Part shown: piece after piece, positions 19,926 to 48,660 of the stretch
Position numbering within the stretch: position 1 is the stretch's first letter
Layout: the number at the start of each line of letters is the position of its first letter
DNA from: a virus
Length of the DNA: 64,000 nt
IMG/VR virus record: IMGVR_UViG_3300045988_172457
Span: 13,245 to 77,244 of that record
Direction: 5' to 3' (one strand)
Notes under the pieces: model-generated
What the model was told of the DNA's origin: nothing
The model's database searches: none
The model's input: the letters and a program-made list of their open reading frames with translations, nothing else
Translations under genes and position numbers: made by a program

Positions 19926-21136
19926 TTACGCCCACGACCTTTCTTTCCTTCACTGTTCTTAGCGTTCGGATTGAATCTTTCCGGATTGAAACCACGGTCG
20001 GGCAAAGCCCAGTTAAGAATGTTCTCCCTAGCAAAAGCAAGACCGGGGTCATCCCATCTGACATCACCGTTGGCGATATGGTTGCTTGCCTCGACCGTCT
20101 GATATTCGGTTCCGAGAAACGTCCCATATCTCGTATAGTCGAGCCGTCTGTAACCTTGCAGTCCGACCGGAACAGTGTCCTTGATGCCGATGAGTTCCTT
20201 CGGAAGATGATGCTCAGCCAAGGCCGTCAGCAGATTCAACGCGTCTATCTGCGTCTGCCTTCCAGCCTTGACGATAACCAGACAAGGGTCTCCCGATTGA
20301 ATGTATGGAAGCAGTAAACCGTTGGCGATATTCTCCCTATCATCCAAATCGTCCGCGCTGATTCGGTCAAGGTCGAGCACGACGAAATCCCACAGTCGGC
20401 GTGCCGCTTGGATGTACTGACGGTATATCTGCCAGTCCACTCCGACGCCTGCTGGAGGTGCGAAACAGATGTCGTATGGAACCCCAAGGTCACGTCCTCG
20501 ATTGGCTCCGACCTGCACCTGCATGCCCGGTCGCCAGTCGGCTATCGTATGCAATGGCTTGTCCTGTCTCGGGTCGAAAAAACTACGTTGGCTGGACTGT
20601 CTGATGTTCCCGTCGATGAGTAGAACACGCAATCCGGCTTGCGACGCACGGTCTGCCAACTGTCGGCTGGACGTGGTCTTCCCCACTCCTCCGGTGTTGG
20701 ATGTGATGGGTAGGAGAACCGCAGTCTCCTTCACTTTGTTTTGGAGGATATCGACTACGAGACGCTTGTCCGCAAGCTGGATTCCCCAATAAGTCCGTGC
20801 GAAATCAGCCACGCTCATGCGTAACATCTGTTCGCTCATGCCCATGGCTCCGACCGGTATCTGACCGGTGTTGCACCAGTAGACCATGTATCCGGCGTTG
20901 GCTATCGGAAGCCAGTTTCCAGCCCTGTCGGTGAAGATGATTCCTTTGAACCCGGAGGGCACCGGATGTCTTATCAGATAGTCGGCCTGTGCTTGAATAT
21001 TGTCTGCGGCGGGCACCTGCCAACGCATGTTTCCGGCTCTCGTAAGGGCCTTTTTGATGGTTGTGAGAAGCCCTCCGGAGCCGATTATCAGGGAAATCGT
21101 TCGTTTTTCCAATAAGACCGCCTCCTGATGGGTCAT
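19922..21136 (-). CDS. ParA/MinD-family P-loop ATPase with an N-terminal ~150-aa extension (CpaE/TadZ-like architecture)
   Basis: Deviant Walker A TGGVGKTTSS. First gene of the ~11 kb minus-strand operon. Confidence 0.7.
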   Translation of the reverse strand: MTHQEAVLLEKRTISLIIGSGGLLTTIKKALTRAGNMRWQVPAADNIQAQADYLIRHPVPSGFKGIIFTDRAGNWLPIANAGYMVYWCNTGQIPVGAMGMSEQMLRMSVADFARTYWGIQLADKRLVVDILQNKVKETAVLLPITSNTGGVGKTTSSRQLADRASQAGLRVLLIDGNIRQSSQRSFFDPRQDKPLHTIADWRPGMQVQVGANRGRDLGVPYDICFAPPAGVGVDWQIYRQYIQAARRLWDFVVLDLDRISADDLDDRENIANGLLLPYIQSGDPCLVIVKAGRQTQIDALNLLTALAEHHLPKELIGIKDTVPVGLQGYRRLDYTRYGTFLGTEYQTVEASNHIANGDVRWDDPGLAFARENILNWALPDRGFNPERFNPNAKNSEGKKGRGRK

Positions 21137-29541: not shown

Positions 29542-29940
29542 TTGGAAAGGACGAACAAAAGCATGGTCGAAAAACCGAAAAAACCGAACACATCCCCGGC
29601 GAAGCTTCTGACCGCAGACGAGGCTTTGGCCTTGGGAAGACGGCCGGAAGTCGTCAACGTCTTGAAAAACAAGCACGGATGGTGGGTAATCTTCACCACC
29701 CAATTCCAAGACGAAGTGACCCTCCGATATCTGCAAGGGGAACGTCCCTCGGAGATATTCCGCAGTCACAATCTCGGACCGGAAGTCCTCGGATACAAGC
29801 GCATAGAACGTTGCGTATACCGGTGGGTCAACCATCCCAGCAAATCCCGTGTCAAACGTTGGCAAACGGAACACCGCCTGTATGAGACGTTGAACAAGAA
29901 TCAGACCAACACCGGCAAGAAGGAGAACAACGACAAGTGA
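29542..29940 (+). CDS. Hypothetical basic protein (132 aa), coupled to dnaB. Possible helicase-associated or DNA-binding protein.
   Basis: Its stop overlaps the dnaB GTG start (GTGA). Confidence 0.45.
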   Translation: MERTNKSMVEKPKKPNTSPAKLLTADEALALGRRPEVVNVLKNKHGWWVIFTTQFQDEVTLRYLQGERPSEIFRSHNLGPEVLGYKRIERCVYRWVNHPSKSRVKRWQTEHRLYETLNKNQTNTGKKENNDK

Positions 29941-31277
29941 GCGTCCCCACACCAATCCACAAGGACATGGCCGAGCAAGTATTGTTGGGGGCCATGCTTC
30001 AAGACGCGGAAACGTTGGACAAGGTCATCAGCCAACTTTCCGAAGAGGACTTCTACCAGCCGACCAACCAGACCATCCTCCATAATATAAAGGAACTGGC
30101 CGCAGACAATAACCGTGTGGACGCGCAAATGCTGTCCTCGCACATGATGGACAACGGACAGTTGGAACAGGTCGGCGGCATCGACTACATCGCCCAGCTT
30201 GTCGGCTCCGCGCCCACGTCGAACAACAGTGACTATTTCATCAAGCAGATTCGTGACGCGGCCATCCTCCGCCACATCAACATGGTCGGACAGCAGTTGC
30301 AACAGATGAGCAACGTATCCGACGCGTCAGCCGAAGATGTGCTCAGCAAATCGTTGGAGGCCGCGTTCTCGTTGGAGGATTCAAGCCGTTCCGAAGACGA
30401 CGAGTTGAAGACCGCATACCGCCTGTCCGACGAAATGCTCCAACAGTTGGATGAAATGTCACAGAATCCGAACGAGTTCGGAACACCCACCGGCTTCCGT
30501 GACATCGACGCGTTGACGCACGGATTGCAAGCCGGACAAATGGTCATAGTCGCGGGCCGTCCGGGCATGGGCAAGAGTACTCTCGGCATGGATTTCGCGC
30601 GTAACGCCGCACTGCACAAGGGTCTGCCGACTGTGATTTTCAGTCTGGAAATGGGCGGTCACGAACTCATGCAACGCATGTTCGCAGCCGAAACAGGCAT
30701 CCGTCTCGCATCGTTCCAACATCCCGAGAATCTGAACTCGAATGATTGGAACAAACTCAACGCGCTCTGCCATCAGGTCGAGAAGGCACCATTGTGGGTT
30801 GATGATTCCGCCATCATCAACATGAGCACCATCCGTGCGAAATGCCGTGCTCTCAGCCGCAAGGTCAACGGGTTGAAGCTTATCGTCATCGACTACCTGC
30901 AACTCATGTCCTCCGGTAAAACCGTCGAGAACCGTCAGCAGGAAGTGTCGAACTTCTCCCGCCAATGCAAAATGCTCGCCAAGGAACTGCAATGCCCCGT
31001 GGTCGTGCTCTCCCAGTTGAACCGTAATGCGGAACAGCGTGCCGACAAGAAGCCGGAACTGTCCGACCTGAGAGAGTCCGGTTCCATCGAACAGGACGCC
31101 GACATGGTGTTCCTCGTGCATCGTCCCGAATACTACGACCGTGAGGAACGTCCGGGCGAAGCCGACGTGATTCTCGCCAAGCACCGTAACGGGCCTACCG
31201 AAACGTTCAATCTCGCGTTCATGGGCGAATGCTCCAAATTCGCGGACATGGCCGCAGGTTTCGAAAACGAGTTCTGA
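29937..31277 (+). CDS. dnaB: Replicative DNA helicase DnaB
   Basis: N-terminal DnaB domain (LLGAMLQD...), Walker A GRPGMGKST, and a C-terminal RecA-like domain with the LSDLRESGSIEQDADMV motif. Confidence 0.85.
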   Translation: MSVPTPIHKDMAEQVLLGAMLQDAETLDKVISQLSEEDFYQPTNQTILHNIKELAADNNRVDAQMLSSHMMDNGQLEQVGGIDYIAQLVGSAPTSNNSDYFIKQIRDAAILRHINMVGQQLQQMSNVSDASAEDVLSKSLEAAFSLEDSSRSEDDELKTAYRLSDEMLQQLDEMSQNPNEFGTPTGFRDIDALTHGLQAGQMVIVAGRPGMGKSTLGMDFARNAALHKGLPTVIFSLEMGGHELMQRMFAAETGIRLASFQHPENLNSNDWNKLNALCHQVEKAPLWVDDSAIINMSTIRAKCRALSRKVNGLKLIVIDYLQLMSSGKTVENRQQEVSNFSRQCKMLAKELQCPVVVLSQLNRNAEQRADKKPELSDLRESGSIEQDADMVFLVHRPEYYDREERPGEADVILAKHRNGPTETFNLAFMGECSKFADMAAGFENEF

Positions 31278-31328: not shown

Positions 31329-32726
31329 ATGCCAACAACATTGATAATCGTCGCGGCAGTGGCGATACTCATCATCCTGCTCGCAACCGCAAGCTACAAG
31401 GTCTGCCCCGCCGACCGGGTAATGGTCATCACCGGGCCGGGTGGACGACGCTTCGTCTCCGGCGGAAGCGCGTTCATCATACCCTTCATCATGCGCGTGG
31501 ACTGGCTCTCCCTCGGAGCGGTGCAGTCGCTCCTGAGAACCGACACGCCGATTCCGACGAAGGACGCAATCCTCATCGACGTGAACGCCGTCGCGAACTT
31601 CCAGATAGCATCCGAGACCATGACCGTGGACGAGAACGGTAAACAGGTGAAGGCGTTGGAGAACGCCGCCAAGAACTATCTGAACCAGTCCAAGGAGCGA
31701 ATGGAGAAGGACGTGACGCAGGTGCTCTTGGGCAAGCTGCGCGAGGTCATCGGCAAGACCGAGTTGAAGGAGCTCATGGAGAACAGGGACACGTTCGCCG
31801 CGACCGTGGCCGAATCCGCCCGCGTGGATATGGAACGGCTTGGCCTTCAATTGACCACGTTCAACATTCAAGACTTCACCGACCGTCAGAACGTCATCGC
31901 CAACATGGGCGCTGAAATGGCCGCCGAAATCAGCCGGAATGCGAAGCTCGCGTCCATCAACGCGGAACAGGATGTGGCCGTCCGTCAGAACCAGCTCGAC
32001 CTGAAACGAGCCGAACTCCAATCCATCTCCGACAAGGCGCAGGCCGAGGCCGACGCGGTGAAGGGCATCACCGCCGCCGAACAGTCCAAAACTCTCAAAG
32101 TCAAGGAGCAAGAGGCTGAAATCGCCGCCGCCGAAAAGAAGGCAGTCCTCGAACAGAAGAACGCCGAAATCGAAGAGCAAAAACTGAACGCGACCATCCG
32201 CAAGAAGGCCGACGCCGACCGTTACGCCGCCGAACAGCAGGCCGACGCGCAAATGTACACAACCCAAAAACACGCCGACGCGGAACTGTACCTACGCCAG
32301 CAGGAGGCTCAGGCCATCCAATCCACAGCCGACGCGGACGCACACGCGACCGAAGTCAAAGGCAAGGCTGAAGGCTCCGCCGCACAGGCCAAGGGCGTGG
32401 GCGAGGCGGAGGCAATCCGCGCCCAAGGCCGAGCCTACAATGCGATGAACAACACGTACATCCTCGCCCAACAGTACATTCAGATTCTCCCCGACATGGT
32501 TCGAGCCGCCGCCGAACCGCTCACCAAGGTTGACCACATCACCATGTACGGCGACGGAAACAGCACGAAGCTCGTGGGCGACACGGTGAACAGTGTGAGC
32601 CAGTTGAGTGAGGGATTGTCGCAATCCTTGGGCATCGATTTGAAAGCCTTGCTGAACAGTATGGTGGCCGGTCATGCCGCCGGTTCCGCATTGAGTGAGA
32701 AAGGTTCCGAACAGTCCGGAAACTAG
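31329..32726 (+). CDS. Flotillin-like SPFH/Band-7 domain protein
   Basis: N-terminal TM, an SPFH core, and long A/E/Q/K-rich coiled-coil repeats typical of bacterial flotillins (FloT/YuaG-like). Confidence 0.8.
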   Translation: MPTTLIIVAAVAILIILLATASYKVCPADRVMVITGPGGRRFVSGGSAFIIPFIMRVDWLSLGAVQSLLRTDTPIPTKDAILIDVNAVANFQIASETMTVDENGKQVKALENAAKNYLNQSKERMEKDVTQVLLGKLREVIGKTELKELMENRDTFAATVAESARVDMERLGLQLTTFNIQDFTDRQNVIANMGAEMAAEISRNAKLASINAEQDVAVRQNQLDLKRAELQSISDKAQAEADAVKGITAAEQSKTLKVKEQEAEIAAAEKKAVLEQKNAEIEEQKLNATIRKKADADRYAAEQQADAQMYTTQKHADAELYLRQQEAQAIQSTADADAHATEVKGKAEGSAAQAKGVGEAEAIRAQGRAYNAMNNTYILAQQYIQILPDMVRAAAEPLTKVDHITMYGDGNSTKLVGDTVNSVSQLSEGLSQSLGIDLKALLNSMVAGHAAGSALSEKGSEQSGN

Positions 32727-32906: not shown

Positions 32907-34601
32907 GTGAAAACCAAAAACCCGTTGAAGGCAACGGTCGCCACGCTTGTGGCCGGTGCCATGGGTTTGGCTGGAGTCGGCTCCGCCATGGCGGCTGATA
33001 CTCGTGTTGACGCATCCAAGTTTGATGCGGCTGCTCGTCAGACGTTGACCGTCGCTGCTAATGGTGATATTAGCAATCGCACGTTGAAGGCTGTGCCGCT
33101 CGCCTACTATTCGTATGCGCAGACTGATGGTACTAATATTACCGGCTTTGACCTGATTGACGCGGGCAAGGCTTCTGCTATTGCTGACGCATTGACTAAA
33201 GCCAGTATTGACACTAAGTCCAAGAAAGACCAGACTGCCGGATACGACTATAATGCGTCCAATCCGATGGTGTGGGTCGTGCAGAATCTCCTTGATTCCG
33301 AGAACAGTCCGTGGGCTGGCAAGCTTCGTGACTTCATCGACCAGTTGAAGAACGAGGCCGCTGTCATCGGCGACAAGGGCACCGCGTTCGCCAAGGGCGC
33401 CGACGCCAAGCATATGACCGCTTCTGTCCGTCCGGGCGTGTACGCGGTCGTGGACACCACCAAGACCGGTCAGGCGTCCATCGTCATGTTCAACGGCACC
33501 GGCATCGATGGCAAGACCACGTTGAAGAACGGCGCCAAGACCTACACGCTGGGCACCGTGGACTATAAGGTACACGGCACCACCGTCACGAAGAAGATTA
33601 CCGCCGCCGAAAACGGCACCGTCGAAAACAGTGGCGCGACCGCCGAAACCGCTATCGGCAAGAAGGTCAGCTTCGAAATGACCAGCAAAGTGCCGAACTG
33701 GACTGGCTACGACAAGTACTATTACGCCATCAACGATACGTATTCCAAGGGCCTGACTTATGACGCGGCCAAGGACAACATGGTCGTGACCGTGGACGGT
33801 AAGACCCTCATCCGCGACACCGATTACAAGGTCACTACTGAGGATGGCAAGTTCCACATCATCTTCGCTCCGACCACCGGTGACTCCACCACCACATCCG
33901 ACATTGTGGCGATGAAAGCCAAGTTCCCGGTCGATGCCGCCGTTGACGTCAAGTACGGCATGTACGTGAACAAGAACGCCGTCTCCGGAACCGCCGACGC
34001 CAACACCAACGAGGTCGAATACTCGCATAATCCGAACACCGTCACCGACCATGAGACCACCCCGGGCCAGACCGACAAGGTGTACGTCGGCAAGTTCACC
34101 CTCACCAAGCACGACACGAACAACGCTCCGCTCGCCGGAGCCGAGTTCAAGGTGTACGAGGGCGACCAGACCACCACCCCGGTCAGGTTCGTCAAGTCCT
34201 CCGACGGCCTGACCTACCGCAAGGCCGACCTGACCGAGAGCACCGGCACCACCGACACCGTCACCAGCGTCGCTACTAGCAATGGCGTGCTCACGCTGAC
34301 CGGCCTCGACGGCAAGTACACGGTCAAGGAGACAAAGAGTCCGTTCAACGGCTCCATCCTGCCGCAGTTCACCCTGACCATCAAGGTGAACCAGTCGAAC
34401 GGCTCCTACATGCTCAGCCAGTTCGATAAGGACGCCAACAATCTGGCTTCCGAGAACGTTGACAAGATGGGTGTGACCGTCATCAACGCCCGCAACATCG
34501 CTGACATGCCGAAGACCGGTGCGGTCTGGCTGTCCATCTTCGGCGTGATGACCGTCCTGTTGGCTGGCGCTTCCGCCCTGCTGCTTCGTCGCAAGGCGTG
34601 A
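32907..34601 (+). CDS. Sortase-dependent major pilin (isopeptide-forming fimbrial subunit) with an MPKTG sorting signal
   Basis: Signal peptide, E-box-like GKYTVKETKSPFNG, and C-terminal ...DMPKTG + TM + RRKA. GTG start with a strong RBS. Confidence 0.8.
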   Translation: MKTKNPLKATVATLVAGAMGLAGVGSAMAADTRVDASKFDAAARQTLTVAANGDISNRTLKAVPLAYYSYAQTDGTNITGFDLIDAGKASAIADALTKASIDTKSKKDQTAGYDYNASNPMVWVVQNLLDSENSPWAGKLRDFIDQLKNEAAVIGDKGTAFAKGADAKHMTASVRPGVYAVVDTTKTGQASIVMFNGTGIDGKTTLKNGAKTYTLGTVDYKVHGTTVTKKITAAENGTVENSGATAETAIGKKVSFEMTSKVPNWTGYDKYYYAINDTYSKGLTYDAAKDNMVVTVDGKTLIRDTDYKVTTEDGKFHIIFAPTTGDSTTTSDIVAMKAKFPVDAAVDVKYGMYVNKNAVSGTADANTNEVEYSHNPNTVTDHETTPGQTDKVYVGKFTLTKHDTNNAPLAGAEFKVYEGDQTTTPVRFVKSSDGLTYRKADLTESTGTTDTVTSVATSNGVLTLTGLDGKYTVKETKSPFNGSILPQFTLTIKVNQSNGSYMLSQFDKDANNLASENVDKMGVTVINARNIADMPKTGAVWLSIFGVMTVLLAGASALLLRRKA

Positions 34602-34736
34602 GATTGGAAGATTGGAATACTGCCGTATGAGAAAACTTTTCTGACCGTTTGACGGTTGGAAAAGCATGAAATGTTCCGCTTGGCGTGTCGGGAACCCAAA
34701 TATCGACACGCCACCTTTTAGATTCTTTATAACCGC

Positions 34737-35642
34737 ATGGGAGGGGTTTTGGGAAAACATACGGCGAAACCGAAAGGCTTGGGAAATCGAGCCATAGCGG
34801 GACTTCTCTGCCTAATCCTATCCGCCCTGTCCGGAACCATCCCATTCATTCTCATGATTTCGAACAGCAGCCAATCCAACCGGTTGACCGACTCCCACGC
34901 GCAAGCCGTGGAAAACACTGACGTGAAACGAATCGCCCAAGAGTATGCGGACGCGCAAGCCTACAATCAACGCCTATACGAGGAAGGCCAGCCCATTCTT
35001 GGTGAGGCGGAAGACCCTTGGACAGGCGTCAACAAGTCCGAAACGGACAACACGTATCGGAAGCAACTATCCACCCCCAAGGATGGGGTCATGGCCACCA
35101 TCAAATATCCACGCTTGGGCATCAACCTGCCCATCCGGCATGGCACGTCGCAAAACGTGTTGGCCGCTGGAGCCGGACACTTATATGGTTCCAGTCTCCC
35201 CGTCGGCGGCAAGAACACGCATACTGTCATATCCGCGCACACGGGTTTGGCAGACCAGCTCATGTTCGACAAGCTACGAGGCTTCGGCAGTGAAGCCAAA
35301 AAAAGTGACGTCTTCTATCTGATAACCGCCGGACATACGCTCGCCTACAAGGTCACAAGCATTGATGTGGTAGACCCATCCGATTTCACCAAACTGAAAA
35401 TCGTCGCCGGAAAAGACCTCGCCACACTCCTAACCTGCACGCCATACGGCATCAACAACAAGCGACTCCTAGTGACCGGCACGCGCACCAGCATGCCGCA
35501 CCCCGCACCCAGACCCGAAAACGCGCCGAAAGACCACACGAACCAATGGCTCATACTGTACGTCGGCGGCTTCTGGCTTGCGGTAATCATCATCACCATT
35601 CTCATCATCCGTAGAAAAAACCACGCAAAGAAGGAACACTAA
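34737..35642 (+). CDS. srtC: Class C (pilus-specific) sortase
   Basis: TLLTCTPYG catalytic-Cys motif, N- and C-terminal TM segments, and position between the pilin and tip protein genes. Confidence 0.8.
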   Translation: MGGVLGKHTAKPKGLGNRAIAGLLCLILSALSGTIPFILMISNSSQSNRLTDSHAQAVENTDVKRIAQEYADAQAYNQRLYEEGQPILGEAEDPWTGVNKSETDNTYRKQLSTPKDGVMATIKYPRLGINLPIRHGTSQNVLAAGAGHLYGSSLPVGGKNTHTVISAHTGLADQLMFDKLRGFGSEAKKSDVFYLITAGHTLAYKVTSIDVVDPSDFTKLKIVAGKDLATLLTCTPYGINNKRLLVTGTRTSMPHPAPRPENAPKDHTNQWLILYVGGFWLAVIIITILIIRRKNHAKKEH

Positions 35643-38600
35643 TGGGTATTCTCAAAAAGCATGTGGCACATCCGGTAGCATTATTGGCCGCAATCGCCAC
35701 ACTGTCATCCGGCCTGATATGCATGACCAATCCGGTAGCCTCTCCGAAAGCGCATGCGGACGAGTTGAAACCCGCATATGCTACTGCGAAAATCGTTAAG
35801 AAAGCCGACGGTACGGGGCATGGCACGAGTTCGCAAACGTTCGTGAATTCGAAGAACGGGTTCGCCACGGGCGATGATTCCCCTACCGATGGCGTGGTCG
35901 CATCCGGTGATACGGTCGAATATTCTCTCACGTTGAACTTCAACGCGGCGGGCAAGCGTACCATCAACGTGAAGTTCGACTTGGATGACGCGCCGTATTT
36001 GCAGACTGCTGACGGTGGTGGCTTCTGCCAGCCGGGACAACTCGTCACCGCGAAGAAAAACAGTGACGGCTCCTGCTCCTACACGGTTCCAGCCGGTGGC
36101 GTGGAAACCATGACCCAAACCTTCTATCTGAAAGCAAAAGACACGGGAGGCTTGGTCAAGCCGGGTCAGATTCCGAAAATCGTCGTCGCCCGCGAAGGTG
36201 GAACGTCAACCACGTATCGTACGGATGAGCTGACTGTAGTATCCGCTCCGGCGGCTGACTTGGTCATTGACAATGGCGGCAATCCGGTGAAAGGCCAATA
36301 CTCGTATGAGCATCGTACTTATTGGAGTCAGAACACCGATGCGACCGGTGATTTCACTATTCGTACCGACGCGTTGACCTATCCGGGTTATTCGTCCACG
36401 AAGGGCGCGTCCACCAGCATCGATTGGACTACCAAAGTGGATATTTCCGACTTCCCGCAGGGCACCGTGTGGACTGTAGGCGGTCAGCGGATTACCCGTA
36501 ACAGTGATAAAGAACAGTATTTGACCGTATCCAGTGGCAAAAACGGTACGGCGGCGACAATCAGCTACAGGATTCCCGCCGGAACCGACGCGCTCAAAAA
36601 CATGAAAGAAGGAGACGTCAAATATTACGATGTCCACCTTGTTCCCGACGAAACCGTGTTCAGCGTCAAAGACGATAACGGCAACGCACTGTTGAACATG
36701 GGCAAGGGCGGCGAACCCGGCTGGAACATTGGACGGGACAAGAGCACCTACAACAAGGATACGGGTGCCCGCGTCGGCTACCCGTACGCGAACAATGACT
36801 GGTCACGAGCCATCATCCAACGGCTCAAGCCGACTCCAGCTGGCAAGATTCCACTGTTCGGCAAAGGACTGCAACGTCCTAACACTGCGTCCAAGACCAT
36901 GTTCGACAAGGAGAATCTGACGTTCGACGCCGCCGAAGGCAAAGCCGACATCTACCATTACTATTCCGACGGTTCCGGCGACACCGTGTCCCGTGGAACG
37001 CAAGTCAAAACCATTTTGGAAATGTATGCGGCGAACGTTACTGCGGACAAGCTTAAAAACACTACGCCGACCATGCAGGATGAGTGGGATAATACGCGCA
37101 TGCGGTGGGATGGAAGCTTGGAAGTCACCCAGAACGGTGCTCCGGTTTCCGACTACAAAGTTCAATGGGCTGATAGCAAAGACAATTGGCATGACGGGGA
37201 ACCATCCGACACGGACGCTCCGAACGTCAAGAAGATTCGGGTGACGTTCAACCCCGACACGTTGACTTTAGGAAAGGGTGCGCCGAACGTTCAGGTCACG
37301 TTCAACACGCTCGCCATAGCCGACGTGTCCAAAGGCAATGTGGAAGCTTTGGATACGCTGACCGCATGGCTTACCGAAGACGATAAGGCGAGCGTCACCA
37401 ATTGGGTGTGGATTGCCAAGCCGGTAGACCCGACCACCAGTATCGACATCAGTCTGAAAGCCTACGATGGTGAAGGCAATCAAGTGTATGCGAACAACAG
37501 TTCCAATCACCCGTCCGGAAGCGCAGTCGATTTGACTCCCGGCATGCGAGTGGATTATACGGTCACGGAACAGTTGCGCACCATTCTCCTGTCCAATACA
37601 AGCATGACGCCGACCATCACGGTGCCGAAACCGAAAGGCTTGTACAATCCGACCTGTGATGATTCGTTCTGGCAGATGAAAGTGGACGGGAATAATCTCG
37701 TGTTCACGCCACGTTCTGGCAAAGTCACGCCGGAAGTAGACCGTATGGGGTCGGCCACTTTGCCTGACCTGCATTTCAGTGGCATCGTATCCAATCTCGC
37801 CACCGGGACTGTGACCGCCAGTGCGAATATGAGCGTGGACGTTGACGAGAACGGCGCATTGCAAGCCCAAACCATCAAAAGCAATACGCCCAGCGTCCCA
37901 TTCCCCGTCTCCAATGCGGAAACCAACAGTGGCATCATGCGTGTGAAGACCACGAAGGCTGAAATCGGTGACCCGCTTACTTGGGAGTTCAACGTGTACG
38001 GCAAGGGCGGCGGTCACACCGGCACCATGGATAGCATGCTACTGCTTCCTGCGAATGGTGATGAGAAGTACGTGCAGGACAAGCTGGTCGAATATGAGCG
38101 TGGATACAGCAACTATCATGGCTCCTACGAACTGACCCAGCCCATCACGGTCAATATGGACAATTCGACCAGTACGACCGTCTACTATTCAACCACCACC
38201 GGAAAGAAGTCGGATAATCCGGCTGACTACGAGTGGAAGACATGGGACAAGTTGACGGATTCGGACAAGAAGAACATCACCGCCATCCGACTGACCAGCA
38301 CAGTCGTCGCATCCGACGAAAAACTATCCTATTCCGCAGTGAACGGCACCATCACGCTCAACCCGTCCGACAATGTGAAAGACGACAAGTACACGCTATG
38401 GTTGGGCCGCAACTATTATTCCGACACGGCAGGCAAGCCAGCAGGCAACCAGCCATGGCCTGACGTGGCGAACGTCGTCGTCGGTAGCATTTCCGGTACC
38501 GTCTGGTGGGATAAGGATGAGAACACGCTCATCGGAGATGGTGAGGAACGTATCGAAGGCGTGGAAGTCATCCTCAGCAAGCAGGATGCGAATGGTGCTT

Positions 38601-41245
38601 GGCAGTCCGTCAAGACAGTGAAAACCGACAAGGACGGGTATTACGAGTTCGACCTGCTCCACTCCGGCACGTACAAGACTTCGGTGAAACGCAATACGGG
38701 CACCAGTACGGGCGACGGCGTGCAAACCCAAGTCAAAACCTACTACGGCAAATTGGAAGACGTGACGAACACGCGCAGCTGGTCTAACAAAATCAAGTCC
38801 AACGCGACAGACACGTCCGACGACATCCACCTAGGTATCGGCATCAACCAGACCCACGTGGACTACGGTTACGCGAAACCAGACCTGAAAGCCACCGTAG
38901 ACAAAACCGTCACCGGCACCAATTGCACGGACACAAAATGCGTCATCAACTGGGATGTGAAGGTGCAGAATAAGGGCAAGAGCACCGAGAAGGCACCGAG
39001 TGTACCACCACTGAAGACATTTGCCGCAGGCGGCGCGCATTCACTCGCCTTGGATTCGGAAGGTCACCTATGGGCATGGGGATATAACCATGATGGCACG
39101 GGAACTGACCAGAGCACGCCGATTTTGGTTTCCGACGGTCATGTTTGGAAGTCTGGTGTTCAGGTTGTTCCTGATACTTCCACTGAGTCTTCCGGCACGT
39201 CTCGTTTTGATACTTCCAGTGTCGTGTCTGACCGTATGAGTGCTGATGTGCATGATGTGACGGCTACGGCGGGTACTGTGAGTATTGAATCCGGTGGTGC
39301 GAAGCAGGTTGCGACGAGTGGCGACCATAAGTTTGTGTTGACGAATGAGGGCTTGTTGTATGCGTGGGGTAATAACCAGTATGGTCAATTGGGTTTCAAG
39401 CCTGACTCCACGAACACGAGTACTCCGGTGAACGTGAACAAGCCGACCATCATCAACGGTAGTTGGCTGAAAGTCGCCGCCGGTGGCAAACATTCCGCCG
39501 CCATCAGCACGGACGGACACCTGTACACGACCGGTTGGAATAGTAGAGGCCAATTGGGTACGGGTGATACGGACAATCGTTTCGAATGGACGGAAGTCGC
39601 TTCGGATAAGACGTTCACGGACGTGGCATGCGGCAACCAGTTCACCGTCGCCATCGCCAGTGACGGAACCCTGTGGGCCACGGGAAACATTGGCAACAAG
39701 ACTTACACGAGTCTGACCCAGATTAGCTCCGTCACATCCACGCAAGTCAGCGCAAGCATGGACTCGTTCATCGCATTGACCAAGAACGGCGGAAGCCTGT
39801 ATGCGGGCGCTTCGACCGCATTAACCCCAAAAGGAAGCGGCTATATGCAGGTGGCCGCCGCATTCGGTCAAGTATACGCGTTGACCAATTCGGGCACCGT
39901 CCAACCGGTAGCCACCCTGAACCGCGACGGCTATTCGCCCAACGTGTCCAGTCTGAAGGACATCACACTCATCAGCGGCGGCTATCAGACCTTGTACGCC
40001 ATCGACAAGAACCAACACTTGTGGGCTTCAGGCTGGAATGGTGACGGACAATTGGCGAACGGCAAGACCGGCAACGGCATGTATTGGACGGACGACTCCA
40101 CCGGTAACAACACGGACATCATCGGCACGCCAGTCGATACGGGCATCATCGCCTCCGACGTGGCGGGCGGCGACCGTGACGTGCTCATTCTTGGCAAGCA
40201 GGTCATGATTGCGGGCTTCGACCCGTATGGTGACGGTAAGACGGGTGGCGCGCGTTCGATCGGTTTGAAGGGTATGGCGGTCTCGTCCGACCCGACCGCC
40301 GTACCTGTCGAACCATCGAGCGAAACCACTGAGAATGGGTTGACTACCCGCACGTACAATCTGCCGTATTCGATTGAGCCGGGCGGCTATGTCATCTACC
40401 ATTTCACCGGCACAGTTGACCGTGAGACCGCTGACATGACGGGCAAAGACCAGACGTACATTGACGAGTGGGTTAAGAAGAATACGAAGACCATTCTCAA
40501 CCAAGCATGGTTCGACTCCGAACACACGCCATATTCGGGCACGCCACACGCAAGCGGCAAAAACAAGCCGAACACTCCGGACGCTACGAAACTGGATGCC
40601 AACACGAATGATGTGACCGGCAATCCGACATGCCGCACCGACACGGACTATACGGAGGAAGGACGCCAACACTGGTTCAGCACGTCCGATGAGGACTCCT
40701 GCGACCAAGTCGGCACCATCATCACACCAACCACCACCGCGAAGAAACTCGGTTCCATCAGCGGCCTGTATTGGGAGGATACCAACAAGAACGGCATTCA
40801 AGATGAAGGTGAGAACACGCATTTCGCCGGTCAGACGGTCATTCTGACTGACGAGAACGGCAAACAGTTGGCAACCACCAAGACCGACAAGGATGGCAAG
40901 TACATTTTCAAACGTCTGGACGCGAACGGCAACAAATACCGTATCCAATTCACCAAAGTGAACCACCGGGACTTCACCACGCCGGATGTGGGAGACAAGA
41001 CTCCTGCGGCGGATGGAAGCTCCACTGATTCGGATGCTTACACGGATGAAGCCAACAAGCTGACCATCACCCTCACCCAAGATGCTCCAACCAAGGAGCA
41101 TGTGGATGCGGGTGTCCTGCCTGAAACATGGTTGGCGACCATGCCGCACACGGGCATGGGATTGCTGTTGCCGCTCCTCATGCTCGTCAGCATCAGCGGA
41201 CTCGTCGCGGCAATCATCCTCCTACGAAAGAAGGAAGAACAGTGA
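35642..41245 (+). CDS. Giant sortase-anchored surface protein / putative pilus tip adhesin (1867 aa) with a ~7-blade RCC1-repeat beta-propeller and CnaB/SdrD-B-like domains. Its sorting signal is MPHTG.
   Basis: Signal peptide. RCC1 repeats (HLWAWGYNHDGTGTDQ, LYAWGNNQYGQLG, LYTTGWNSRGQLGTG, LWASGWNGDGQLANG). SdrD-B-like ISGTVWWDKDENTLIGDGEERIEGVEV... and LYWEDTNKNGIQDEGEN... segments. C-terminal LPETWLATMPHTG + TM + RKKEEQ. Confidence 0.8.
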   Translation: MGILKKHVAHPVALLAAIATLSSGLICMTNPVASPKAHADELKPAYATAKIVKKADGTGHGTSSQTFVNSKNGFATGDDSPTDGVVASGDTVEYSLTLNFNAAGKRTINVKFDLDDAPYLQTADGGGFCQPGQLVTAKKNSDGSCSYTVPAGGVETMTQTFYLKAKDTGGLVKPGQIPKIVVAREGGTSTTYRTDELTVVSAPAADLVIDNGGNPVKGQYSYEHRTYWSQNTDATGDFTIRTDALTYPGYSSTKGASTSIDWTTKVDISDFPQGTVWTVGGQRITRNSDKEQYLTVSSGKNGTAATISYRIPAGTDALKNMKEGDVKYYDVHLVPDETVFSVKDDNGNALLNMGKGGEPGWNIGRDKSTYNKDTGARVGYPYANNDWSRAIIQRLKPTPAGKIPLFGKGLQRPNTASKTMFDKENLTFDAAEGKADIYHYYSDGSGDTVSRGTQVKTILEMYAANVTADKLKNTTPTMQDEWDNTRMRWDGSLEVTQNGAPVSDYKVQWADSKDNWHDGEPSDTDAPNVKKIRVTFNPDTLTLGKGAPNVQVTFNTLAIADVSKGNVEALDTLTAWLTEDDKASVTNWVWIAKPVDPTTSIDISLKAYDGEGNQVYANNSSNHPSGSAVDLTPGMRVDYTVTEQLRTILLSNTSMTPTITVPKPKGLYNPTCDDSFWQMKVDGNNLVFTPRSGKVTPEVDRMGSATLPDLHFSGIVSNLATGTVTASANMSVDVDENGALQAQTIKSNTPSVPFPVSNAETNSGIMRVKTTKAEIGDPLTWEFNVYGKGGGHTGTMDSMLLLPANGDEKYVQDKLVEYERGYSNYHGSYELTQPITVNMDNSTSTTVYYSTTTGKKSDNPADYEWKTWDKLTDSDKKNITAIRLTSTVVASDEKLSYSAVNGTITLNPSDNVKDDKYTLWLGRNYYSDTAGKPAGNQPWPDVANVVVGSISGTVWWDKDENTLIGDGEERIEGVEVILSKQDANGAWQSVKTVKTDKDGYYEFDLLHSGTYKTSVKRNTGTSTGDGVQTQVKTYYGKLEDVTNTRSWSNKIKSNATDTSDDIHLGIGINQTHVDYGYAKPDLKATVDKTVTGTNCTDTKCVINWDVKVQNKGKSTEKAPSVPPLKTFAAGGAHSLALDSEGHLWAWGYNHDGTGTDQSTPILVSDGHVWKSGVQVVPDTSTESSGTSRFDTSSVVSDRMSADVHDVTATAGTVSIESGGAKQVATSGDHKFVLTNEGLLYAWGNNQYGQLGFKPDSTNTSTPVNVNKPTIINGSWLKVAAGGKHSAAISTDGHLYTTGWNSRGQLGTGDTDNRFEWTEVASDKTFTDVACGNQFTVAIASDGTLWATGNIGNKTYTSLTQISSVTSTQVSASMDSFIALTKNGGSLYAGASTALTPKGSGYMQVAAAFGQVYALTNSGTVQPVATLNRDGYSPNVSSLKDITLISGGYQTLYAIDKNQHLWASGWNGDGQLANGKTGNGMYWTDDSTGNNTDIIGTPVDTGIIASDVAGGDRDVLILGKQVMIAGFDPYGDGKTGGARSIGLKGMAVSSDPTAVPVEPSSETTENGLTTRTYNLPYSIEPGGYVIYHFTGTVDRETADMTGKDQTYIDEWVKKNTKTILNQAWFDSEHTPYSGTPHASGKNKPNTPDATKLDANTNDVTGNPTCRTDTDYTEEGRQHWFSTSDEDSCDQVGTIITPTTTAKKLGSISGLYWEDTNKNGIQDEGENTHFAGQTVILTDENGKQLATTKTDKDGKYIFKRLDANGNKYRIQFTKVNHRDFTTPDVGDKTPAADGSSTDSDAYTDEANKLTITLTQDAPTKEHVDAGVLPETWLATMPHTGMGLLLPLLMLVSISGLVAAIILLRKKEEQ

Positions 41246-41256
41246 AAGGAACAAGA

Positions 41257-42189
41257 ATGGGCGAACACGCCACACAATCACACGGGAGCCGTCACATGGT
41301 TCGGCGGCTCCTCGCCACCCTCGCCATCATGAGCGCGGTCTGCGGCGGCTTCCTCACCGGTAGTGCAATAGCCGCCGAACCAGCCAAATGCAATACTGGC
41401 GTGGACAAGGTTTGCTACGCGGGCTATAACGCGGCGGGATTGAAACAGATTGCCGACGATTTAAGCGAGAAAGGCAAAGGAAGCACATACTATGCCGCAA
41501 TGGAAAAGAACCTGACCGACGGGGTCAAAGGCACGCTCACCCTATCAGACGGCTCGAACCTCCCATTCCGACTCATCGGCATCCTCCACGACGACAAAGC
41601 CGACGGAAGTGGACGAAAAGCAGGATTGACGTTCATGGCTTGGAACGCGTTACCGAAAGCGTATGCCATGAACAATAGTCACACCAATAATGGCGGCTGG
41701 CGTGACAGTCTTCTCCGCAATCAGATGAACAATGGTGAAATCTGGAACCAATTCCCAACCGACTTCCAAAACAACGTCACAACCGTGCTGAAACAAACCA
41801 ACAACATGGCCTACGGAAGCACAGTCGGTTCAAGCGCGTCAGCCACGGCAGACAAAGTATGGCTCGTCTCCTACCGTGAACTCGTACCAACCTTATACGA
41901 TGGTTGGAAGACCTCTGGTGGTTTCCAAGCGTTGAATCAGGAGGGAAGCCAATACGAGTATTTCCACGGTAAGGTGACAAATAACTGGTCGGGTAATAGC
42001 ATTCTCTCCGGCATCTACAAGACCGTTTCCGGTTCCACTCCTCTTGGTGCTAGCTACGGCAGTTGGTGGGAGCGTTCGCCCCACCTGGGCAACAACTACT
42101 TTTTCCTCCTAGTGCACTCGCACGGCGACCCCAGCTACAGCGGCGGTGCCTACGATCGCTGCTCCGTTGTCCCCGCTTTCTCCTTCTAA
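41257..42189 (+). CDS. DGR target gene: secreted protein (310 aa) with the variable region (VR) at its C-terminus
   Basis: Signal peptide (LLATLAIMSAVCGGFLTGSAIA). Its 3' 168 bp match a downstream template repeat with adenine-specific differences. Start chosen at ATG 41257, which has an RBS. Confidence 0.7.
   Translation: MGEHATQSHGSRHMVRRLLATLAIMSAVCGGFLTGSAIAAEPAKCNTGVDKVCYAGYNAAGLKQIADDLSEKGKGSTYYAAMEKNLTDGVKGTLTLSDGSNLPFRLIGILHDDKADGSGRKAGLTFMAWNALPKAYAMNNSHTNNGGWRDSLLRNQMNNGEIWNQFPTDFQNNVTTVLKQTNNMAYGSTVGSSASATADKVWLVSYRELVPTLYDGWKTSGGFQALNQEGSQYEYFHGKVTNNWSGNSILSGIYKTVSGSTPLGASYGSWWERSPHLGNNYFFLLVHSHGDPSYSGGAYDRCSVVPAFSF
42022..42189 (+). repeat. DGR variable region (VR)
   Basis: Aligns with TR 42820-42987 at a fixed offset of 798 bp. 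About 23-24 mismatches lie at TR adenines and only 1 non-A mismatch lies in the body. Three non-A mismatches in the last 10 nt look like IMH (homing-signal) end differences. Confidence 0.8.
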
Positions 42190-42201
42190 TCCCCAATCCT
42201 T

Positions 42202-42228
42202 GGGTGGTGGGGTTCATCCCCACCACCC
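42202..42228 (+). promoter_or_regulatory. Perfect 11-bp-stem hairpin immediately 3' of VR (DGR target-site hairpin/cruciform candidate)
   Basis: GGGTGGTGGGG-ttcat-CCCCACCACCC lies 12 nt after the target stop codon. Confidence 0.6.
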
Positions 42229-42261
42229 CTCCAAACTCAAATCTCACACAAAAGGAGTCCT

Positions 42262-42777
42262 ATGACGGTTCCCGCAAGCAAACGTACAAAAGCCAAAAGC
42301 GAATATGCGAATCAGGCCAGAATCGTGCTCTTGGCTACCAGAAATCTGTTCCGCAAATGGCCTAAAAGCCGTAACTGCATTGAAACCGTGCATGTCATGC
42401 ATATCGCCTACGAAATGTACTCCTCCGCCTACAGTGCCGACATCATTTATGCAAGCACTGTAGAAGAGCATGAGATGAAACTGCAACTGTTGTGCAAGGC
42501 CCAAGGCATGCTGAACTCACTCTCCGGTCTTGTGGACGATTGGATGGAGTTTCCTCCACGGGAAAAAGACTTGGAAGCCTACAGGAAATATCCGGAAGGC
42601 GACCCCAGATACAATCCCGTCGTCAAGGAGAAGAAATTCGTGAACTATGCGGGAATCCTCTACAAGGCGATGGGCGTGTTCACCGGAGCCGTCAAGTATG
42701 AGCGAGACCAGTTGAAGAAAGCTAAAAACGCCGAGTCGAAAACGAACACTATAATGGATACTCGGGCGCAAGCCTAA
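42262..42777 (+). CDS. avd: Putative DGR accessory variability determinant (Avd-like, 171 aa, basic)
   Basis: Position between VR and TR, as in the canonical DGR cassette order. Basic helical small protein with a good RBS. The assignment is by synteny. Confidence 0.5.
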   Translation: MTVPASKRTKAKSEYANQARIVLLATRNLFRKWPKSRNCIETVHVMHIAYEMYSSAYSADIIYASTVEEHEMKLQLLCKAQGMLNSLSGLVDDWMEFPPREKDLEAYRKYPEGDPRYNPVVKEKKFVNYAGILYKAMGVFTGAVKYERDQLKKAKNAESKTNTIMDTRAQA

Positions 42778-42819
42778 AATATAATTGAACAAAATCGGCC
42801 ATATCCAAACTATGGTGAC

Positions 42820-42987
42820 ACCGTTTCCGGTTCCACTCCTCTTGGTGCTAACAACAACAATTGGTGGGAGCGTTCGCCCAACCCGAACAACAACAACAAT
42901 TTCCTCCAAGTGAACTCGAACGGCGACCCCAGCTACAACAACAATGCCAACAATCGCTACTCCGTTGTCCCCGATTCCTCTTACCAA
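42820..42987 (+). repeat. DGR template repeat (TR), rich in AAC/AAT codons
   Basis: Near-identical to VR except at adenines. TR AAC AAC AAC AAT corresponds to VR AGC TAC GGC AGT, and similarly elsewhere. Confidence 0.8.
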
Positions 42988-43167
42988 AAACTAACATCAG
43001 ATAGGCCAGTAGCCCAATGGGTGAAAGCCTCCCGAAGGGGAAGGGGATATGGTCGAATGCGCGGCCCCTCGAAAAATGGGTTGCGTGTGAAATAGGTTGA
43101 GGGAGATATTAAGACTGTCGGAAACGACGGATACTCGCCCCTTAAGCTGGGCGTCCAACATCATTGC

Positions 43168-44397
43168 ATGTCTTGGGTTGTTGCCGACGACCTGCCCTCA
43201 ACCATTCTTTTCTCTTTCCCTAGTGAAGGAAGCATTAAAATCGTGAATGCGAGTCAAAGACGTAGAAGACGCCAACGCAGACTGCAACAACGCTCGGATG
43301 ATAAGTACAGGAAGCTCCACCGTTACATCGACTTCCAACAAACATTCGGATTCGACGCGCTCTACCAAGCCGCAAGAAAATGCAAACGCGGCGTCACATG
43401 GAAAAACACAGTGTTGAACTTCGACAATAGGCGTGCCGTCAACTGTTGGAAACTCGCCCAAGAATTAGAGGACGGCACATACAAGAAGAGAGCGCCAATC
43501 CGATTCGACATTTCCGAACGAGGCAAACTCCGCCACATCAGCGCGGTATCCTTCCGAGACCGGGTGGTGCAACGCGCCTTATGCGACAACAGTCTCGTCC
43601 CCATCGTGGAAAGCCAACTGATATACGATAATGCGGCAAGCCTACCGAAACGTGGAACATCGTTCGCCCGAAAACGGTTCGAACTACACTATAAGCGGGC
43701 TTTGGGCAAATGGGAGCATCCGTATGCTGTCATCTTCGACTGTGCCAACTATTTCGGAAGTATCAGCTCCCAACGAGCGTTCGATATGATTTCCACCCTG
43801 TACCGGAGCATCGCCCGCACCGGACGGGAGAAGCAGGATGTGGAACGGATTCTAACCGTATTGAGAATCTTCGTATTGGACGAACCTCACTTGGGTTTAG
43901 GCAATCAGACAAGCCAAACCATGGCTATCTGGTATTTGAACAAGGTTGACCACTGGTGCATGTCGCAAGGATTCTACGGACGGTATATGGATGATGCCTA
44001 CTGTTTCTGCAAGAATCGTGAACAGGCCGAACGTGTGCTGGCCGGTTACGAGCGGCATGTCAATCAATTGGGATTGCGGTTGAACAAGCGCAAGACCCGC
44101 ATAGTGGACTGTCGCACCGGTCAACTCACATTCCTGAAACGCGTATACAGCGTACAGGATGACGGCAGTATTCTTATCCGCATGCACCATAAGGCGTTGC
44201 GTGCAAGCCGACGGCATGCGCGTAACCTTATCCGCTCATATGATGGCGTGCATGTGGGATTGCGGACAGTTCAGGATTCTTGGACGAGCCATGAGAGCAC
44301 ACTGTCGGGTCTAACTCACCGTCGTGGACTGTGCGCTCGGGAGAAAGCGTGGTATCGGAGGCATTGTGAAATGCGGAAGCTGGCTTTTCACCCGTGA
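43168..44397 (+). CDS. DGR reverse transcriptase
   Basis: Conserved DGR-RT N-terminal block (AARKCKRGVTW...ELEDGTYKKRAPIRFDISERGKLRHISAVSFRDRVVQRAL). The motif-4 SQ variant (LGNQTSQTMAIWYL) is a DGR hallmark. YMDD catalytic motif. Confidence 0.85.
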   Translation: MSWVVADDLPSTILFSFPSEGSIKIVNASQRRRRRQRRLQQRSDDKYRKLHRYIDFQQTFGFDALYQAARKCKRGVTWKNTVLNFDNRRAVNCWKLAQELEDGTYKKRAPIRFDISERGKLRHISAVSFRDRVVQRALCDNSLVPIVESQLIYDNAASLPKRGTSFARKRFELHYKRALGKWEHPYAVIFDCANYFGSISSQRAFDMISTLYRSIARTGREKQDVERILTVLRIFVLDEPHLGLGNQTSQTMAIWYLNKVDHWCMSQGFYGRYMDDAYCFCKNREQAERVLAGYERHVNQLGLRLNKRKTRIVDCRTGQLTFLKRVYSVQDDGSILIRMHHKALRASRRHARNLIRSYDGVHVGLRTVQDSWTSHESTLSGLTHRRGLCAREKAWYRRHCEMRKLAFHP

Positions 44398-47835: not shown

Positions 47836-48660
47836 ATGAGCAACATCGACAGCATCATCGAACGCATCAACAACCTCATGGCAATAGCCGAAAACGAAGC
47901 ATCCAGCGACAATGAGGCGCAAATGGCGTTCGAGCGGGCACAGAAACTCATTAACGAATATCGTATCGAAGACTGGAAACGCGACCGCACCCGCACGAAC
48001 AAGCCAATCATCGAACGTGGCGTGAACGTAAGCAAAACCACCATCTACCATCAGCAAGGCTACCTTGCGACCATCATCGCCCAAGCTAACGAATGCCGCG
48101 CCTACCTTCACGAAAGCCGGTGTGGCGGAAGGATTGAGGAACGTGCCGTCATGTTCGTAGGCGAGGAGGACGATGTGAACGCCGCAGTCCTTCTCTTCCA
48201 AAGCATCGACCTATACTGCTCAGTCCACGCCCGTACTAGCTACGCGGACATGATTGACAAGCACGCCAAAGCGTACTATGAGGACAACAAGGAATACGTC
48301 GAAACGCATTACGGACGTGAATCCTATCCGACGCTGACGGAATGCAAACAGTACATGCGTCGTGATTATCCACGCGCCAAGTTCTACTATGGTTATCGCG
48401 GTGGATTCAACGAACGTTTGAGCGAACGTTTCGAGGAGCTTCGCAAGCAGAGTCTCGCCATTCCTTCCGGTCGTGAGCTGGTGTCATGTAAGAGTCAGCG
48501 TCTGAACGAGTATTTTGACAAGCTTGAGCTGGTGTCGGGTCATGCGGCCACTGCTCGTGGTAGCAAGGATGGTTTTGCCCGTGGTGTGAGTGACGCGAAC
48601 AATGTGGGTTTGGGTTTGTCTGAAATGGGTGTTTCGTCCCACGCTTTGCTGAATGCCTGA
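47836..48660 (+). CDS. DUF2786-like protein (274 aa)
   Basis: N-terminal IERINNLMAIAENEASSDNEAQMAFERAQKLINEY matches the DUF2786 signature. Confidence 0.6.
   Translation: MSNIDSIIERINNLMAIAENEASSDNEAQMAFERAQKLINEYRIEDWKRDRTRTNKPIIERGVNVSKTTIYHQQGYLATIIAQANECRAYLHESRCGGRIEERAVMFVGEEDDVNAAVLLFQSIDLYCSVHARTSYADMIDKHAKAYYEDNKEYVETHYGRESYPTLTECKQYMRRDYPRAKFYYGYRGGFNERLSERFEELRKQSLAIPSGRELVSCKSQRLNEYFDKLELVSGHAATARGSKDGFARGVSDANNVGLGLSEMGVSSHALLNA

Follow-up and report, generated by a model that had tools for sequence, protein, structure and literature searches.

The type 2 fimbria of Actinomyces oris (FimA, FimB/CafA and SrtC2) and the SpaA-type pili of Corynebacterium diphtheriae are made from two structural proteins, a pilin with a pilin-motif lysine, an E box and a sorting signal, and a large tip adhesin, together with a dedicated class C sortase. 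The substrates of these systems carry the sorting motif LPLTG. Pili with the same operon logic and a class C sortase have been published for the genus Bifidobacterium as well (B. bifidum PRL2010 pil2/pil3, B. dentium and B. adolescentis BAD_1463), and all bifidobacterial major pilins tabulated by Foroni et al. in 2011 carry LPxTG (PMC3231923). Here we analyzed a 64,000-nt stretch of DNA (IMG/VR record IMGVR_UViG_3300045988_172457, positions 13,245 to 77,244; in the following 'the window'), whose region 32907-41245 is, judged by its sequence, a sortase-dependent SpaA/Fim-type pilus operon of Bifidobacterium adolescentis with two structural proteins and a predicted polymerization into fibres. 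The layout, the pilin-motif lysine, the E box, the sorting signals, the class C sortase and the large tip protein are as in A. oris and C. diphtheriae, whereas the sorting motif of both structural proteins is MPxTG, and the MPKTG lineage to which the pilin belongs is not listed in the 2011 survey. We observed that this MPxTG is a genuine conserved signature of a whole lineage of pilins and sortases, within which one residue of the sortase, F217, tracks the motif with a single exception. B. adolescentis is common among the commensals of the human gut, where sortase-dependent pili mediate adhesion.

Sorting motifs with a first residue (P4) other than Leu are well documented in class C substrates, so that a specialist will not be greatly surprised by Met at this position. 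In Streptococcus pneumoniae RrgB carries IPQTG, RrgA YPRTG and RrgC VPDTG (PMC5640630), and such residues are thought to route the substrates among several sortases (PMC5640630; PMC3186789). In the streptococcal loci, however, each of three pilins has a first residue of its own and several sortases are encoded, while the locus described here has a single sortase and a Met that is shared by both substrates. In a full-text literature search we did not find Met at the first motif position reported for pilins, and MPxTG, MPKTG and MPHTG were not found in a sortase context apart from one item, the 'MPQTG anchor' of the collagen-binding protein CnbB of Lactobacillus paracasei (PMC3716772). CnbB is a lone wall-anchored adhesin that appears in a table without analysis of a cognate sortase, in contrast to the pilus system considered here. 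Taken as a whole, the MPxTG pilus departs only modestly from a well-known system and involves no new mechanism; its value lies in the clade-wide conservation, in the agreement of the substrates within each locus and in sister enzymes with Phe or Thr at position 217, which offer a handle on P4 recognition.

Structure of the pilus operon and its sorting signals

Three genes on the + strand make up the region 32907-41245 and encode a pilin, a class C sortase and a large tip protein. The major (shaft) pilin (32907-34601, 564 aa) starts with GTG and has a signal peptide ending in ...GSAMA/AD. It is matched by the Pfam families GramPos_pilinBB and SpaA and by the isopeptide domain TIGR04226; the SpaH/EbpB major pilin model NF033902 reaches 83.9 bits, which is below its cut-off of 95, and the label given by the Prokaryotic Genome Annotation Pipeline (PGAP) is only that of an isopeptide-forming fimbrial protein. 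The pilin motif TLGTVDYK (33546-33569) fits the bifidobacterial consensus xxxxxTVxxK and the E box YTVKETKSPFNG (34317-34352) fits the consensus YxxxETxAPxGY (PMC3231923), both as in the published Bifidobacterium pili, whereas the pilin motif of A. oris and C. diphtheriae is of the type WxxxVxVYPK. Lys221 of the pilin motif (33567-33569) is the predicted acceptor lysine for polymerization; it is invariant in 37 of 37 members of the pilin clade defined below and in 77 of 79 relatives outside the clade, and E475 of the E box is invariant across the clade. Translation of the 3' end of the gene gives ...NARNIADMPKTGAVWLSIFGVMTVLLAGASALLLRRKA, in which ...NIADMPKTG is followed by the hydrophobic membrane-spanning stretch AVWLSIFGVMTVLLAGASALLL and the basic tail RRKA (34521-34598). 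The motif MPKTG itself is encoded by ATG CCG AAG ACC GGT at 34506-34520, and ...NIADMPKTGAVW... is the candidate substrate peptide for the sortase.

The class C (pilus-specific) sortase (34737-35642, + strand, 301 aa) has membrane helices at both its N- and C-terminus and matches Pfam Sortase as well as NF033745 class_C_sortase (222.6 bits at a cut-off of 160). Its DPW lid (D93-W95, 35013-35021) is characteristic of class C sortases, and D93 and P94 are invariant in our sortase alignment. The same is true for the catalytic residues His168 (VISAHTG, 35238-35240), which aligns with the sortase His of 2xwg and 3o0p, Cys234 (TLLTCTPYG, 35436-35438) and Arg243 (35463-35465). Among solved structures its best relative is 2xwg_A (E = 4.9e-47), whose PDB title reads only 'sortase' and which we take to be SrtC2 of A. 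oris. The stop codon of the sortase gene overlaps the start codon of the tip gene (TAATG), by which the latter is translationally coupled to the sortase.

The large protein of 1867 aa (35642-41245, + strand), a predicted tip or ancillary pilin and adhesin, ends with ...LPETWLATMPHTGMGLLLPLLMLVSISGLVAAIILLRKKEEQ, where ...LATMPHTG precedes a hydrophobic stretch and the tail RKKEEQ, which extends to 41242; MPHTG is encoded by ATG CCG CAC ACG GGC at 41141-41155. A first stalk domain, which resembles CarboxypepD_reg, SpaA and SdrD_B, covers approximately aa 965-1023 (38534-38710), an RCC1-like beta-propeller covers aa 1125-1476 (39014-40069; PF25390 with 216 bits, and the RCC1 and RCC1_2 repeats match as well), and a C-terminal SdrD_B stalk domain covers aa 1707-1825 (40760-41116; PF17210 with 90.1 bits). 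SdrD_B is found in two stretches of the protein. No Pfam family matched the N-terminal ~950 aa, and for aa 1-960 a PDB relative was not found by sequence. The best 120 tip orthologs (80-88% identity) share the same set of Pfam domains, and the combination of RCC1 with SdrD_B/SpaA is kept in B. saguini (loci L084-L086) and in locus L089; the tip of locus L080, in which RCC1 is matched faintly, likely shares it too. The propeller distinguishes this protein from the tips of A. oris and C. diphtheriae. That it acts at the pilus tip is suggested by its position in the operon, the coupling to the sortase, its size, the adhesin-like domains and the sorting signal. Four residues upstream of MPHTG a pseudo-motif LPETW is found (41117-41131), which reads LPETG in 1 of the 120 orthologs.

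On the model TIGR01167 LPXTG_anchor the isolated tails of pilin and tip score 22.9 and 16.8 bits, respectively (curated cut-off 15.9), and the Pfam model Gram_pos_anchor stays under its cut-off (9.5 vs 20 bits); screens for an LPxTG motif would miss these substrates. The sequence-only reading of the window had pointed out an M-P-x-T-G motif with hydrophobic stretch and basic tail on both proteins, Met in place of Leu in both substrates, an adjoining class C sortase and a tip that joins an RCC1 propeller to SdrD-B/CnaB stalk domains. The translations (ATG codons at 34506 and 41141) and the profile searches, in which the stalks match SdrD_B and SpaA/CarboxypepD_reg, bore this out. The locus thus has a class C sortase above the model cut-off with DPW lid and invariant His/Cys/Arg triad, a major pilin with signal peptide, pilin-motif lysine and E box, and a pentapeptide with hydrophobic stretch and basic tail at the extreme C-terminus of two proteins. 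Pro, Thr and Gly of the pentapeptide are canonical, and the first position, where Leu is the rule, is Met in both. The Met aside, the locus conforms to the ordinary pattern of an actinobacterial sortase-dependent pilus operon with two structural proteins. With regard to the host, the DnaB gene of the window (29937-31277) falls in a cluster named Bifidobacterium adolescentis, and public assemblies contain the exact pilin, sortase and tip sequences, that of the sortase being present on 134 contigs.

Conservation of the MPxTG signature

We found MPKTG in 120 of the 120 best pilin homologs, which span 73-98% identity, and MPHTG likewise in all 120 best tip orthologs. A sequencing error or an isolated substitution is ruled out by these numbers; ordinary LPxTG homologs and sequencing error were the two outcomes by which the sequence-only reading would have failed, and neither was observed. 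For 150 pilin relatives, one representative per 50%-identity cluster, a neighbour-joining (NJ) tree was computed after trimming the last 40 residues. The pilin of the window belongs to a monophyletic clade of 37 clusters, 32 of which end in MPKTG, 3 in LPKTG, 1 in IPLTG and 1 in MATTG. Outside this clade the motif is LPxTG, save some Firmicutes-like FPxTG and a single MPATG, which means Met at the first position in 1 of about 79 relatives; given this frequency, Met on both substrates of one locus exceeds chance. The motif of the pilin is embedded in a conserved extended context, (A/V)RN(L/I)x(E/D)MPKTGAxW. The pilins sampled from loci with an MPxTG pilin (M-type loci) share only 38-60% identity with that of the window, and over such distances a neutral ATG would be expected to have drifted more often to CTG or TTG.

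The clade pilin with MATTG, in which the second motif position has changed from Pro to Ala, is located at 549-2234 of locus L091 and adjoins an F217 sortase whose beta6/beta7 loop is lengthened by an insertion of 9 residues. The locus of the IPLTG pilin (L087) is truncated by a contig end, and so is locus L010, whose sortase has Ser at position 217.

Pairing of substrates and sortases in other genomes

We collected further loci by a profile scan with the sortase alignment, using one genome per species, which gave at least 79 loci. Among the matches listed the best sortase was 57% identical to that of the window, and in each of the seven loci with the closest sortases (49-57% identity) the gene immediately 5' of the sortase encodes an MPKTG pilin; these loci belong to B. 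rousetti, B. pongonis, B. erythrocebi, B. canis, an Aeriscardovia bin, a Senegalimassilia bin and another bin. In 5 of the 7 the motif of a second sorting-signal protein starts with Met as well (MPFTG, MPVSG, MPTTG, MPVTG and MPHSG). For most of the other loci in the scan the substrates are of the LPxTG type. When 93 sortase domains were placed in a tree, those that adjoin M-type pilins formed one clade, and within this clade both substrates agree at the first residue in 10 of 10 loci with two substrates, seven being M/M and three L/L. The comparison of homologous clusters that the sequence-only reading had called for shows, in sum, a conserved MPxTG (120/120 pilins, 120/120 tips and 32/37 clade clusters).

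The motifs of the second substrates in the M/M loci are MPHTG, MPVTG, MPHSG, MPFTG, MPVSG, MPMTG and MPTTG, and the architectures of these proteins differ: RCC1/SdrD_B in the window, DUF285 with FctA in L005, multiple SpaA/Cna_B in L007, a long protein with a single C-terminal SpaA in L002, L003 and L081, and a 283-aa protein in L004. From this wide variation we can infer that Met was not merely inherited together with one family of tips. Conversely, RCC1-type tips with homologous C-termini (...HVDAGV...) end in LPYTG, LPITG or LPHAG exactly where the pilin carries LPKTG, namely in L086 (B. saguini), L080 and L089.

Some loci have irregularities of their own. In B. biavatii (L045, 10132-17673) the large gene 3' of the sortase appears to be split into three consecutive open reading frames (ORFs), the last of which ends in MPKTG, and the pilin carries LPNTG; in B. 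rousetti (L001, 10588-17730) no sorting signal was recognized in a 2380-aa ORF 3' of the sortase. Both the split gene and the long ORF may be pseudogenes or assembly errors. Locus L093 consists of pilin and sortase alone and has no tip gene. Furthermore, MPKTG pilus loci with sortases ~50% identical to that of the window are present in bins labelled Senegalimassilia (Coriobacteriia, L007) and 'bacterium' (L006), and these bins also hold LPLTG pilus loci (L024, L025 and L043). The MPKTG loci may have reached these bins by horizontal transfer from one actinobacterial class to another, or else the binning is wrong.

Covariation of sortase residue 217 with the sorting motif

Seven residues (Y124, L127, R134, S166, A172, A203 and F217) set the clade sortases apart from the 73 others with which they were compared, and of these only position 217 tracks the substrate motif. 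The sortase of B. saguini, which has LPxTG substrates, retains the other six residues and has Thr at 217. Among 120 sortase homologs Thr217 was found besides in P0204 only; an LPxTG pilin was predicted from this residue, and LPKTG together with LPITG was found. The prediction from residue 217 also held for the F217 sortases P0211, P0139 and P0171, which were accompanied by MPKTG. It failed for P0147: of the last three F217 sortases looked up, two have MPKTG pilins (L092 and L094) and P0147 (L093) has an LPKTG pilin, and due to this pair a strict rule by which F217 means Met was rejected. T217 is present in the LPxTG loci L086, L080, L088 and L089, with L088 and L089/L090 as further LPKTG loci. 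Counted over the clade, Phe goes with Met in 12 loci, Thr with Leu in 4, Phe with Leu in 1 and Thr with Met in none. In 2xwg, too, Thr stands where the sortase of the window has F217.

Residue 217 (35385-35387) is part of the beta6/beta7 loop PSDFTKLKIVAGKD (aa 214-227, 35376-35417). In an AlphaFold2 model of the sortase, which we used for secondary structure (predicted local distance difference test score, pLDDT, 71.5), it lies in a loop between the strands 200-212 and 227-233. This loop is known to matter for P4 in other sortases: in SrtA of Streptococcus pyogenes the pocket for the P4 Leu is built by V186, V191 and V193 of the beta6/beta7 loop (PMC9520033), and in SrtA of Staphylococcus aureus randomizing or re-engineering the loop shifts the specificity for the first position (PMC8248031). 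The spacing between the Pro of the loop and the catalytic Cys is 20 residues both here (P214-C234) and in S. pyogenes SrtA (P188-C208), which would place F217 opposite V191 of the Leu pocket. As of 2017 no structure of a class C sortase with bound substrate had been reported (PMC5640630).

Possible explanations for the methionine

Considering all comparisons, we propose with a probability of roughly 55% that the MPxTG pilus operon has kept its Met since the cognate P4 pocket, including F217, accepts and probably prefers this residue. The class C sortase would cut MPHTG of the tip between Thr and Gly and join that Thr to K221 of a pilin, and the same step would be repeated on MPKTG of successive pilins, by which the shaft would grow until the finished fibre is handed to the cell wall, a step for which the housekeeping sortase and the class C sortase itself are both candidates. 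Met at P4 would be the ancestral state of one Bifidobacteriaceae pilin/sortase lineage that is present in Coriobacteriia bins as well, and it appears to have been retained by selection, with Leu being tolerated by the pocket. If the pocket is read correctly, Met is a lineage-specific match of the enzyme with both its substrates, and the F217 and T217 enzymes would then be a natural handle on the first-position specificity of class C sortases and a possible orthogonal pair for sortase ligation.

Several observations weigh against this proposal. The match of F217 to V191 comes from an ungapped alignment to a sequence which we assumed to be that of S. pyogenes SrtA and which agrees with all residue numbers quoted in PMC9520033. 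The four T217/LPxTG loci fall into one or two neighbouring groups of the NJ tree and may represent only one or two events, which makes the covariation statistically weak and confounded by phylogeny; at least two independent Met-to-Leu events are suggested by the NJ topology and the identity values. Phe is found at the position of residue 217 in the S. agalactiae class C sortase 3o0p_A, and also in the outgroup sortases L038 and L045, which adjoin LPxTG pilins. Moreover, the LPKTG pilin beside the F217 sortase of L093 is 54% identical to that of the window, an LPxTG pilin is combined with an MPxTG large protein in two loci outside the clade (L045 and L067), and Met and Leu are alike, an in-silico exchange of Met for Leu adding just 3-4 bits to the TIGR01167 score. 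The sequence-only reading had suggested that the sortase co-evolved an altered substrate specificity, and this claim is partly supported for P4: the matching sortase clade, the seven M/M and three L/L loci and the covariation of F217 speak for it, whereas L093, the Phe outgroups and the mixed loci speak against it, so that the data fit a pocket by which Met is accepted or preferred and Leu is tolerated rather than a strict switch. The same exceptions also favor a neutral origin, in which class C sortases would take hydrophobic residues of medium size at P4 without distinction, Met became fixed by chance in the pilin of an ancestor, later tips gained the same C-terminal signal by recombination, and F217 is a mere lineage marker of a sortase whose specificity never changed. 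Such an origin agrees with the conservative character of the exchange, Met and Leu being one nucleotide apart, with the six other residues that are equally clade-specific and do not track the motif, and with I, Y or V at P4 of class C substrates elsewhere (PMC5640630). However, Met has survived in the diverged M-type pilins as well as in dissimilar tips, while the P2 residue is free to vary; not one locus of the clade mixes M and L, and in 3 of 3 loci with an LPKTG pilin and a complete tip the latter has LPxTG and the sortase T217. We consider a neutral origin possible but rather unlikely; it would reduce the Met to a small point of annotation.

The preference of the pocket for Met could be extended by, and is compatible with, an insulating role, in which Met shields the substrates from other enzymes of the same cell, namely the housekeeping class E sortase and those class C sortases that serve resident LPxTG pili. 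In this way the proteins would be neither anchored to the wall too early nor built into mixed fibres, which could be especially useful for a pilus module that moves between hosts on mobile elements. Four genomes indeed hold M-type and L-type pilus loci side by side, namely B. pongonis (L002 and L049), B. erythrocebi (L003 and L053), Senegalimassilia sp. (L007 and L024/L025) and the bin G02646 (L006 and L043), and the modules of the clade are often found in conjugative or integrative surroundings: a coupling protein of a type IV secretion system, TrbL and a relaxase in L093, an integrase and an AAA_10 ATPase in L081, ParA, WhiB and an AgI/II adhesin in L084, and Prim-Pol in L089 and L091. In pilus 2a of group B Streptococcus the basal pilin with its LPKTG is the only one of three pilins on whose signal SrtA acts (PMC3186789), and in A. 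oris the placement of the tip is set by the sorting signal alone (PMC11389406). Against such a role it can be held that the pilus has no basal pilin, so that anchoring needs another route if the housekeeping sortase cannot process MPKTG, and that the window shows no other sortase or LPxTG protein. Insulation is plausible as a role for Met, although on balance we regard it as unlikely. The most far-reaching version, in which MPxTG and the F217-type sortase form an orthogonal sorting channel, Met at P4 is read by the aromatic residue of the beta6/beta7 loop and insulates a horizontally mobile pilus module, and F217/T217 is a natural one-residue switch, would be quite unlikely and is put forward as a speculation. 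Finally, the Met codons could be errors of sequencing or assembly, or the upstream LPETW could be the true motif of the tip, for which its closeness to MPHTG and the LPETG of one ortholog might be quoted. The Met codons are, however, identical across hundreds of independent assemblies, LPETW lacks the Gly, and it is absent from the homologous tips L086, L089 and L080, in which an xPxTG abutting the hydrophobic stretch is always present; an artefact is refuted for practical purposes and has a negligible probability.

Genomic surroundings

HTH_36 is also encountered among the genes of mobile context around the clade modules (L093, L081-L083, L084, L089, L091 and L092). In the operon of the window the 135 nt that separate the pilin gene from the sortase gene contain an inverted repeat of 9 bp, GGCGTGTCG ... 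CGACACGCC, with ACCTTTT after it (34682-34712). This repeat is a candidate for a partial terminator that could set the ratio of pilin to sortase expression; a scan with a terminator consensus gave no call at this repeat, which has a loop of 13 nt and a short T run.

The whole window resembles a variable island. Its G+C content, calculated in 2-kb windows, is 49-57%, and that of the species is presumably about 59%. Upstream of the pilus operon we found genes for an IS605-type OrfB/TnpB (597-1766), a GmrSD-like nuclease (4515-5540), large proteins without family match (10549-14580 and 15616-18276), a ParA-like ATPase (19922-21136), the DnaB mentioned above and a flotillin/SPFH protein (31329-32726), and downstream of it genes for a DUF2786/DUF7168 protein (47836-48660), an RNase T-like exonuclease (54033-54617) and an RNA ligase (59954-61009); AAA ATPases are encoded in the window as well.

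Directly 3' of the tip gene the window contains a diversity-generating retroelement (41128-44397, + strand). Its target gene (41128-42189, + strand) encodes a DUF6273 protein and likely has its true start at MVRRLLATLAIMSAVCGG; read from there, the product resembles a lipoprotein or a secreted protein. The variable repeat (42022-42189) forms the 3' end of the target gene and is followed by a 171-aa ORF (42262-42777), the template repeat (42820-42987) and the gene of a reverse transcriptase of the RVT_1 family (43168-44397). Of the 28 mismatches between the two repeats, 24 fall on adenines of the template.

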